Assembly: GCF_003018235.1 (NCBI RefSeq)
Contig: NZ_CP027437.1
Direction: 5' to 3' (one strand)
From: Escherichia coli
GTDB lineage: Bacteria > Pseudomonadota > Gammaproteobacteria > Enterobacterales > Enterobacteriaceae
Length of the DNA: 64,000 nucleotides
The number at the start of each line of letters is the position of its first letter. The stretch's first letter is position 1. Positions 54,501 through 57,500 of the stretch are shown here, in pieces. Position numbers: made by a program.

Positions 54501-57500
54501 TGATTTGTTCAAACGTGATCGTTTGCCCCGTAATCGGTGCCGACATAATTCACCTCCTTTTTAAGCTATCATCGGGTGTAATTAATTCTTTTTTATTTAA
54601 CTCATGGCAGATGTTTATTCCCATCTAAAATGGCATCAACGGGAAAATAAGTAATGTGTTTATTGTTATTCTTCTCATTTATTTTATCGCCATGGTTATT
54701 TTTTGAATCAACCGTGGCTTCCTCATGATATTTCCTGGCTAACTCTTCAGACGTAAAAGAAGCGTTTTTTCCGTTTATGTTCATTTTGCCGACTCACTCT
54801 GTTTGAACTTCCTCTTCGGTATTGGCTGTCAAAAGTTCAAGATAAGCAGTAGCCATCTCTTTAATTTTTTCATTTTGACTATAGGTTACGACAGTATTAA
54901 ATAACTCAGTGGCCATTTTAATGTTTTTTAAGCCCATCTGGCATTGGCCCATATAATAAACTAAAGAGAAATCGTTATCGGGAGATAGCATTAAACAGAT
55001 ATGATACATGTCGAATGCCTTTTGATAATCTTTCTTCAACTGACAGACGGCGGCATATCCTTTTAAATAGTTATAATTTTGGAAATCATAAATACAGAGA
55101 AATTTAAAAAAGAGCTCAGCTTCGTCAAGTCTTCCTTTTTCATAAAAGTTATAAGCGTAAGCATAAACGCCTTCAAGGGTATCCGGGGTTATGCCATGCA
55201 GCTCTGCAAGCGTTGCTCCCATACCTAATGCACGTTCGAACTTACTGGCAATTTCTTTATTTTCTTCTAAATCCAGATTTGCGCTTTCCATCTCTACTCT
55301 CTCCTTTCGAACATTCTTTGTTCAGACTTCACCATTTTTTAGAGGGGGGTGATATCAAAATTCGCTCATTTTTATGCCCATCCGTTGGGCTTCCTTTTCT
55401 GCATTAAAAACAAGTATTGTTTCAATGAGATAAGATTTTCTATGTGATGAAATGAAAACAATGTAGAGGGAAATTTATCCACAATCCTGATGAATGGGTT
55501 CAATTTTGATTGGAATTTGAAAAAGCAGGTGATTTACTGATGTGCGAGCGTACGTCAGCGGCTGCTGGCCTGAGCGCGGAGGTGTGCGAAATTCACATAT
55601 CCGGGCATTCCACCTTACCCAGCGCTTCCCAGTAGTTATTCTGATTATTACGCTCCATCGCCACAATAGCTTCGCGGATATGTTGTTTGTTACTCTCATC
55701 AGACAACATTAATTTTTCCCACGCTTCGTCTGATAATGACGCCTGTGGCGTGCAAATTTTACGTAAATCTTGCAATACCGTGGTCTTTTCTTTTGCCGAC
55801 TGTAGAGAACTGAATGGCGATTCGGCCTGAGAAATGGCTGGGAAAGTCAGGAATACGGTAATCATGAGTAGCATCGTTGGCTTCATAGCGGCAACCTTCT
55901 GCAAATGTGCATCGAATGAAGCATAAGTGTAGTTTGCTTTTGCCGCTCTCATCATGCTGTACGAAAGGTGTTTGCGTGGTCAGTAAGAAGTGCCAGTTTT
56001 ATATACCTTTTTCTTCTATTCGATAGCTTTTCGTTTTTTAAATCGGAGTGATCTTGCCATTATAGTCAGTTAACGATTAAAAAAAGGATAAAAAAGTGAA
56101 ACTGACAACACATCATCTACGGGCGGGGGCCGCATTATTACTGGCAGGAATTCTGCTGGCAGGTTGCGACCAGAGCAGCAGCGATGAAAAGCACATTAAA
56201 GTGGGCGTTATTAATGGCGCAGAACAAGATGTCGCGGAAGTCGCTAAAAAGGTGGCAAAAGAGAAATATGGCCTCGATGTTGAATTGGTAGGATTTAGCG
56301 GTTCGTTGCTACCGAACGATGCGACAAATCATGGCGAGCTTGATGCGAACGTCTTCCAGCATCGACCCTTTCTTGAACAAGATAATCAGGCGCATGGTTA
56401 TAAACTGGTAGCGGTGGGAAATACGTTTGTCTTCCCCATGGCGGGTTATTCCAAAAAAATCAAAACCGTGGCGCAAATAAAAGAAGGCGCGACAGTGGCG
56501 ATCCCCAACGACCCGACCAACCTTGGTCGCGCGCTTTTACTGTTGCAAAAAGAGAAGCTAATTACTCTGAAAGAGGGAAAAGGGTTATTACCTACCGCGC
56601 TGGATATAACCGATAATCCTCGTCATTTGCAGATTATGGAACTCGAGGGGGCGCAGCTCCCGCGCGTACTGGATGATCCCAAAGTTGATGTGGCGATTAT
56701 CAGCACCACTTACATTCAGCAGACCGGACTTTCTCCGGTGCACGACAGCGTATTTATTGAAGATAAAAATTCGCCGTATGTGAACATTCTGGTAGCACGG
56801 GAAGATAATAAGAATGCAGAAAACGTGAAGGAATTTCTGCAATCTTATCAATCATCTGAAGTCGCTAAAGCGGCAGAAACCATCTTTAACGGTGGCGCGG
56901 TGCCTGGCTGGTAATTCTCACTCATCCCGCGCCGGACGATTTATTTTTCTGGCGCGGCGACGGGAATCCATTGAAATCAAAATCACTGATGACAGAATCA
57001 GAAGCGTTCCCAGCCAGTCCGGTAATGTGAATGTGATCCCCAGCAACAGCAAAGAGAGCAGCGCGCTACTTAATGGTTCTGCACAGCTTAAAATGCTGGC
57101 TTTTGGTCCACCAATTAATTGTGCACCTTTCAGGTACAGACTAAATGTCAGGGACGTACCAATGACCACCAAATAAAAAAACGCCAGAATCAAACTGCCG
57201 TTAACGACAAAGTTTGTCCCTTGTCTGGCATAAAAAGGCAACAGAATTAGACCGCCGATCAGCATACTCCAGCCGACGACAGGCAACGTGCCATAGCGGG
57301 CAATTAGCGTTGAGGGATAGGTGGTATAGAATGCCGCAGCAAATGCCGAGGCAATGCCCCAGAATAACGCGGCAGGAGAGATCGATAATGACGTCGGATT
57401 ACCGTGTGTCACCAGTAAAAAAGTCCCGACCAGCGATGTCAAAATAGCGCAAAAAACCAGAATGCCCGGGCGGGATTTACGCACCAGTGAGAACCAGGCG

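Follow-up and report, generated by a model that had tools for sequence, protein, structure and literature searches.

The translocator operons of Salmonella SPI-1 (sicA-sipBCDA) and Shigella (ipgC-ipaBCD) share an order in which the gene for a class II TPR chaperone is followed by those for an SctE protein (SipB/IpaB-like), a SipC/IpaC-like protein and a SipD/IpaD tip protein. The chaperone gene abuts the first translocator gene in both, with 2 bp separating sicA from sipB in Salmonella and 5 bp separating ipgC from ipaB in Shigella, just as the first-pass annotation of the DNA described below had stated. The corresponding genes are 2 bp apart in Providencia (sicA-sctE) and overlap by 8 bp in an E. 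coli plasmid T3SS. A different spacing is found in the Ysa operon of Yersinia enterocolitica (sycB-yspBCD) and other operons of the EicA/SycB clade, in which the two genes do not abut and gaps are 121–282 bp. The eip island of E. coli, with the same gene order as SPI-1 and Shigella and, like SPI-1, a HilA-like regulator nearby (eilA), belongs to this chaperone subclade (50–57% identity). The published eip locus consists of six genes, eicA, eipB, eipC, eipD, eilA and eaeX (eaeX/air) (PMC11068852, PMC7058095, PMC4210603), and the work of Ren 2004 and Sheikh 2006 on the locus is summarised in two of these papers (PMC11068852, PMC7058095). Mutational attrition has been reported for ETT2 in E. coli (PMC7058095, PMC11068852). 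The published descriptions of the eip locus make no mention of a spacer between eicA and eipB or of a small ORF in it (PMC11068852, PMC7058095, PMC4210603). Here, we describe this spacer, which at 247 bp departs from the 2 bp of SPI-1 and the 5 bp of Shigella and which harbours an orphan ORF as well as an independent, strong Shine-Dalgarno sequence for eipB.

The window, a stretch of 64,000 nucleotides from E. coli (RefSeq assembly GCF_003018235.1, contig NZ_CP027437.1), carries the known selC-linked, ETT2-associated eip island, and the gap sits inside its eicA-eipBCD translocator operon. The minus strand reads yicS, eicA, the 247-bp gap, eipB and then two further translocon genes. A near-identical RefSeq record from strain KE55 gives the order selC, setC, yicL, nlpA, yicS, chaperone, hypothetical protein, SipB/SctE, hypothetical protein, IpaD/SipD-family tip protein, eilA and iatC; by RefSeq annotation the eip locus lies beside selC, with yicS/nlpA on one side and eilA/iatC on the other. 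The first gene, eicA (54794..55291, minus strand), encodes a class II (SycD/LcrH/SicA-type) T3SS translocator chaperone of 165 aa, which matches Pfam TPR_3 (2.3e-17) and passes the cut-off of NCBIfam LcrH_SycD (TIGR02552; 113.3 bits against 104.8). The second, eipB (52765..54546, minus strand), encodes an SctE/SipB-like major translocator of 593 aa (Pfam T3SSipB, 41.5 bits against a cut-off of 31), and RefSeq agrees with both assignments. The locus thus contains a SycD/LcrH/SicA-family TPR chaperone of class II and, directly after it, an SctE-type gene followed by a second translocator and a tip protein (SipB/SctE and IpaD/SipD tip protein in RefSeq), as is typical of class II chaperone-translocator operons. 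The abutment or overlap of the first two genes, which allows translational coupling, is lacking, and 247 bp lie between eicA and eipB.

The intercistronic spacer (54547..54793, minus strand) is 34% GC with 42% A on the coding strand, and it was found in 733 of 5426 complete E. coli genomes. It contains an orphan ORF of 60 codons (54602..54784, minus strand; MNINGKNASFTSEE...YFPVDAILDGNKHLP) that starts with an ATG 9 nt past the eicA stop codon and ends 55 nt short of the eipB ATG. The hydrophilic predicted product has a high content of N, K, E, D and H and is 100% identical to the RefSeq 'hypothetical protein' WP_001579254.1 of strain KE55. The first-pass annotation had placed both the gap and the hydrophilic ORF at exactly these positions, and it had proposed that they represent a small accessory protein, a regulatory leader or a non-coding spacer. 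The small ORF is annotated by RefSeq/PGAP only, as a hypothetical protein or as a frameshifted pseudogene, and is as such an already-known feature of a known locus. We consider it probable that the gap is an intercistronic spacer with a dispensable, E. coli-restricted orphan ORF, which would be a relic or a small gene under weak selection, in decay through frameshifts at homopolymers.

The 60-codon ORF is modestly but genuinely non-random. When the gap was shuffled with dinucleotide composition preserved, an ORF of at least 60 codons appeared on the coding strand in 1.3% of the shuffles (p≈0.013), or in 6.5% when either strand was counted. A codon-usage score trained on eicA and eipBCD gave the ORF a log-odds of 12.5, compared with 17.4±5.9 for windows of the true eip genes and −5.6±6.8 for shuffles of the ORF, only 0.1% of which reached 12.5 (p≈0.001); the other two frames scored strongly negative. 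With its length beyond chance and its eip-like codon usage, the ORF resembles a relic, or a gene under weak selection, rather than random sequence. Of the readings first proposed, the non-coding spacer fits best, with the amendment that the ORF within it has a coding-like composition and is probably such a relic or weakly selected gene.

A conserved gene is expected to keep its frame in close relatives, and the 60-codon ORF does not. It is frameshifted by a +1 or −1 indel in about 31–39% of island-bearing E. coli, or roughly one third. PGAP lists it as a frameshifted pseudogene in the enteroaggregative reference strain EAEC 042 and in AGR6137, 201609 and 88COLEC, where eicA and eipB are intact. 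Two even-step samples of the 733 genomes contained gaps of 246 or 248 bp in 20/59 and 18/59 cases, and the 247-bp gaps retained all 60 codons without exception (36/36). The −1 allele of the 042 type had a match of at least 99% identity in 147 of the 733 genomes. A DNA-pattern scan of metagenomes yielded mostly E. coli eip islands and almost no new lineages, and was used as an independent population sample; among its 41 contigs, 25 were in frame, 12 had the −1 and 4 the +1 indel (16/41 frameshifted). Alignments located the common −1 (A5) and +1 (A7) alleles to an A6 homopolymer at codons 27–29 (54699..54704, minus strand), while the +1 insertion of strain 88COLEC lies in a second A6 run at codons 5–7 (54765..54770, minus strand). 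One metagenome allele (L005) combined a −1 frameshift with a 5-bp deletion by which the frame is restored. Sequencing error was considered as a cause of the frameshifts and rejected: the indels are carried by SNP haplotypes that differ from one another and are present in Sanger-, Illumina- and long-read-based assemblies alike, and must therefore be real. The proposal of a conserved accessory protein had been tied in advance to the absence of frameshifts in closely related islands, and with about one third of the islands carrying them it is left unsupported.

This pattern resembles the gene attrition associated with ETT2 in E. coli in that lineage-specific frameshifts strike an ORF associated with a T3SS (PMC7058095, PMC11068852). 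It differs from general ETT2 decay in that only the small ORF is hit, while in the same genomes both eicA and eipB are undamaged and show purifying selection.

The comparison of synonymous with non-synonymous changes, which had been suggested as a check, likewise did not reveal a protein under selection. Among 20 distinct in-frame alleles, variable sites were distributed over codon positions 1, 2 and 3 as 14:12:15, without the third-position excess and the surplus of synonymous changes that characterise a conserved gene. The pN/pS of the ORF was 0.55 in these alleles, similar to out-of-frame readings of the same DNA (0.58 and 1.19 in the other two frames), and the corresponding values within E. 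coli were 0.06 for eicA at the same loci and 0.32 for EipB. Against the most divergent allele, present in 6 genomes, the ORF had a pN/pS of 0.79 (17 non-synonymous and 5 synonymous changes) and the flanking genes 0.11 and 0.17. Codons 31–60 taken alone gave 0.18, on very few sites. The 60-codon ORF as a whole is hence shown to lack protein-level constraint.

Diversity is unevenly distributed along the gap. Its 3′ part of approximately 118 nt (54547..54664, minus strand), which comprises the final 20 ORF codons plus the untranslated spacer of 55 nt, had a nucleotide diversity of 0.007–0.016, four- to ninefold lower than the 0.05–0.06 of the 5′ part and also below that of neighbouring synonymous sites (0.07–0.10). 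Codons 41–60 are nearly invariant, with 2 of 63 bases differing even in the divergent allele, and the low-diversity block is the same in frameshifted alleles. In L004, the divergent allele, 7 bases of the 55-nt untranslated stretch are altered. Constraint on a C-terminal peptide, a cis element acting on eipB expression and sampling are all possible reasons for the low 3′ diversity.

Homologues in other species or membership in a recognised family, which would also be expected of a conserved gene, were not found. A word-indexed search of 5.8 billion proteins returned only 8 clusters matching the ORF, with identities of 75% or more. When 1.84 billion representatives were searched exhaustively with an HMMER profile, no credible match came from outside E. 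coli, the only additions being frameshift variants and low-complexity noise. No family in Pfam or NCBIfam matches the ORF. The AlphaFold2 model of its product had a mean pLDDT of 56 with a single short helix, a confidence too low for a fold search.

Related islands place the length of the gap in perspective. The orthologous island of E. albertii, with a chaperone that is 72% and an EipB that is only 28% identical, has a gap of 263 bp in which no gene has been called. It contains a GTG-started ORF of 70 codons at the homologous position (MNSIN.. compared with MNIN.. in E. coli), the codon usage of which is non-coding-like. The two gaps are about 50% identical throughout, with slight peaks at both ends only, and in global alignment the two ORFs did not outscore shuffled sequences (p=0.23). 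A third eip-like island, also in E. coli, with a chaperone 55% identical, has a gap of 255 bp without any ORF over 30 codons. The gaps of other relatives measured 171, 121, 282, 268, 46, 34, 32 and 29 bp. A scan of genome contigs with the chaperone alignment contributed 2 loci only, its peptide patterns being too strict. When the chaperones were placed in a neighbour-joining tree, members of the SicA/IpgC clade had gaps from −8 to 46 bp and most of the EicA/SycB clade had gaps of 121–282 bp; two members of the latter clade are short-gapped, with 32 and 34 bp. Given this distribution over most of the clade, the long spacer is a habit that class II chaperone operons of the EicA/SycB branch have inherited and is not peculiar to the window. 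The first-pass annotation had called the gap unusually long, which holds in comparison with SPI-1 and Shigella but not within the EicA/SycB chaperone branch, where long gaps are the rule. Chaperone-translocator abutment is accordingly an architectural habit rather than a strict requirement, and it is usually missing in this clade.

The gap sequences of Ysa and of the EicA/SycB relatives are unrelated to that of eip, and an ORF of no more than 24 codons occurs in the Ysa gap. An 81-aa ORF has been called in the gap of one lineage, L028/L032; it overlaps the chaperone stop codon (ATGA) and has kept equal length. Its dN/dS is 0.24 at a pS of 0.56, next to 0.21 for the neighbouring sctE. Judged by this substitution pattern, a real small gene can exist at the gap position, although its sequence shows no relationship to that of the E. 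coli ORF. BLASTP and hhalign found no similarity among the 60-, 70- and 81-aa gap ORFs. All three begin at or beside the chaperone stop codon.

An alternative is that the product of the 60-codon ORF is a genuine small accessory protein of eip/ETT2, such as a secreted substrate or a co-factor of translocator or chaperone. It would work in the approximately two thirds of strains that are in frame, would share the fast evolution of EipB and would have disappeared from some lineages. We regard this as possible but unlikely. The coding-like codon usage and the length beyond chance are in its favour, as is the start 9 nt past the eicA stop, a position homologous to that of the GTG start in E. albertii with its similar first residues. 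The conserved C-terminal 20 residues, the second, frame-restoring deletion in L005 and the purifying selection on the 81-aa ORF that L028/L032 have at this site point in the same direction. The failure to detect homology for the ORF is weak evidence, since even EipB retains only 28% identity between the E. coli and E. albertii versions. Against such a protein stand the frameshifts in 31–39% of islands, including that of EAEC 042, in which EilA-dependent eip expression has been reported. The absence of a third-position excess, a pN/pS equal to that of the out-of-frame controls and the lack of sequence or profile similarity among the 60-, 70- and 81-aa ORFs also argue against it, and so do the absence of a predicted fold and a weak Shine-Dalgarno sequence. 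The latter had a duplex energy with the anti-Shine-Dalgarno of −4.8 kcal/mol, a value equalled or surpassed by 16% of random operon windows.

The Shine-Dalgarno sequence of eipB is of another kind. It reads AAGGAGGTGA (54550..54559, minus strand), with a GGAGG core 6 nt upstream of the ATG that, by sequence and alignment, is invariant across all alleles seen, and its duplex energy of −15.9 kcal/mol is the strongest in the operon. Searches of the gap for further regulatory content were negative. Neither a σ70-like promoter (−35/−10 hexamers) nor a terminator was found on its coding strand, and no site resembled the MxiE box (GTATCGTTTTTTTANAG; InvF/MxiE-dependent) at 3 or fewer mismatches. Rfam gave no match for the gap at E≤1. 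In RNA structure prediction, another check that had been suggested, neither the entire gap nor its 3′ part folded better than shuffled controls (z-scores of −0.93 and −1.09), and no repeated copy of a gap element occurs elsewhere in the window.

The proposal of a regulatory leader thus drew no positive evidence from the search for RNA structure, Rfam families, promoters or MxiE boxes. In this explanation the gap would be a non-coding cis-regulatory leader with an incidental ORF, in which eipBCD would have an internal promoter or regulator site, or in which a 5′-UTR element would control eipB translation independently of eicA. What speaks for it is that long gaps have been kept across most of the EicA/SycB clade with or without an ORF, and that the 3′ part of the gap is so much less diverse than the 5′ part and than neighbouring synonymous sites, in a block that extends into the untranslated 55 nt and is unchanged in frameshifted alleles. 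The negative promoter, terminator, MxiE-box and Rfam searches and the unremarkable folding are difficult to reconcile with it, as are the even divergence of the E. coli and E. albertii gaps outside their slight end peaks, the 7 altered bases in the untranslated spacer of L004 and the lack of a second copy of the element in the window. We find a leader of this kind quite doubtful. It is very improbable that the 60-aa E. coli, 70-aa E. albertii and 81-aa L028/L032 ORFs are positional homologues of a single very fast-evolving small protein of the EicA/SycB branch (Inv-Mxi-Spa-type T3SSs), perhaps a secreted substrate or translocator co-factor, kept in some lineages and decaying in E. coli.

For a spacer with a dispensable and decaying orphan ORF, the following course of events is suggested. 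The 60-codon ORF probably goes back to a small gene, or is weakly selected at most, and would be dispensable now. Its loss appears to proceed through homopolymer frameshifts, consistent with the mutational attrition of ETT2-associated loci. In strains that are in frame, a small amount of peptide may be made by re-initiation 9 nt past the eicA stop from the weak Shine-Dalgarno sequence, presumably without a selected role. The working content of the spacer would be its 3′ end, which gives eipB a very strong ribosome-binding site of its own. With such a site, EipB translation would be uncoupled from that of EicA and set independently of it, unlike in the coupled pairs sicA-sipB and ipgC-ipaB. Several observations count against decay: the length beyond chance, the eip-like codon usage, the 36 of 36 intact 247-bp gaps, the restored frame of L005, the near-invariant last 20 codons and the selected-looking 81-aa ORF in L028/L032.

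The gap and its ORF are a biologically ordinary feature of the known and published eip island. In the design of eicA/eipB constructs, or when counting "intact" eip islands, the small ORF should not be treated as a required gene. More generally, the genes of class II chaperones and their translocators are not always translationally coupled, and in the EicA/SycB branch they are usually 120–280 bp apart, with at least one lineage of this branch holding a selected-looking small ORF in the gap.

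The E. coli translocator gene eipB (52765-54546, minus strand, in the window) occurs as two deeply divergent allele classes among the comparison loci L002, L006-L008, L010 and L016, such that nucleotide identity over eicA-eipB is about 88-90% between the classes as against 96-99% inside one class. The divergence between classes lies mostly in the C-terminal half of eipB, where pS is 0.19-0.29 and pN/pS is approximately 0.4. The EipB proteins of E. coli and E. albertii share only 28% identity, whereas the chaperones encoded next to them share 72%. Inside eipC, the site GTATCGTTTTTGAACAG (52288-52304, minus strand) differs by two mismatches from the Shigella MxiE-box consensus. 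With up to 3 mismatches allowed, the whole window gave 3 matches where 0.54 were expected, and the match inside eipC is probably due to chance.

Lesions touching eicA or the gap were found in several eip islands. In E. coli MZ1211 (NZ_CP169035.1) an IS1 element is located between setC and eipB (1289-2087 of the extracted locus L009), and the yicL-to-eicA segment is absent together with the 160 bp of the gap that would follow eicA, so that the chaperone gene of eipB is lost. Two metagenome contigs with E. coli eip islands (L038 and L079) have an eicA shortened by a premature stop, which widens the apparent gap to 289 or 374 bp; apart from this, the region of the small ORF is unchanged. In a further metagenome contig (L005, 1175-1351) the small ORF carries the 042-type -1 frameshift, followed 15 nt further downstream by a 5-bp deletion; the indels sum to -6, by which the frame is regained in a 58-aa ORF. 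As this is a single case, the restoration may have come about by chance, may be an artefact of assembly or may show that the frame is selected for. EicA was also encoded, at 99% identity, on a contig labelled "MAG: Collinsella sp." (JAIJJM010000039.1); this contig almost certainly stems from E. coli and was mis-binned into a Collinsella metagenome-assembled genome.

Some E. coli harbour a paralogous third eip-like island (L020 in GCA_009799345.1 and L021 in GCA_910664965.1, about 400-12480), encoding an inverse-autotransporter adhesin, a HilA-like regulator, SctE with a chaperone that shares 55% identity with EicA, a second translocator and a tip protein. The gap of 255 bp between its chaperone and SctE genes is strongly AT-rich (25% GC) and is without an ORF. 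In a gut-metagenome T3SS, whose chaperone is 52% identical to EicA, the corresponding gap of 268 bp is occupied by an 81-aa ORF (L028, 4004-4249; L032, 3001-3246), the start of which overlaps the chaperone stop codon (ATGA). No family match was found for this ORF in Pfam or NCBIfam, and it forms only two clusters among 5.8 billion proteins. The two copies are of the same length and 63% identical, with a dN/dS of 0.24 at a pS of 0.56, and the 81-aa ORF probably represents a genuine family of small genes that lacks annotation.
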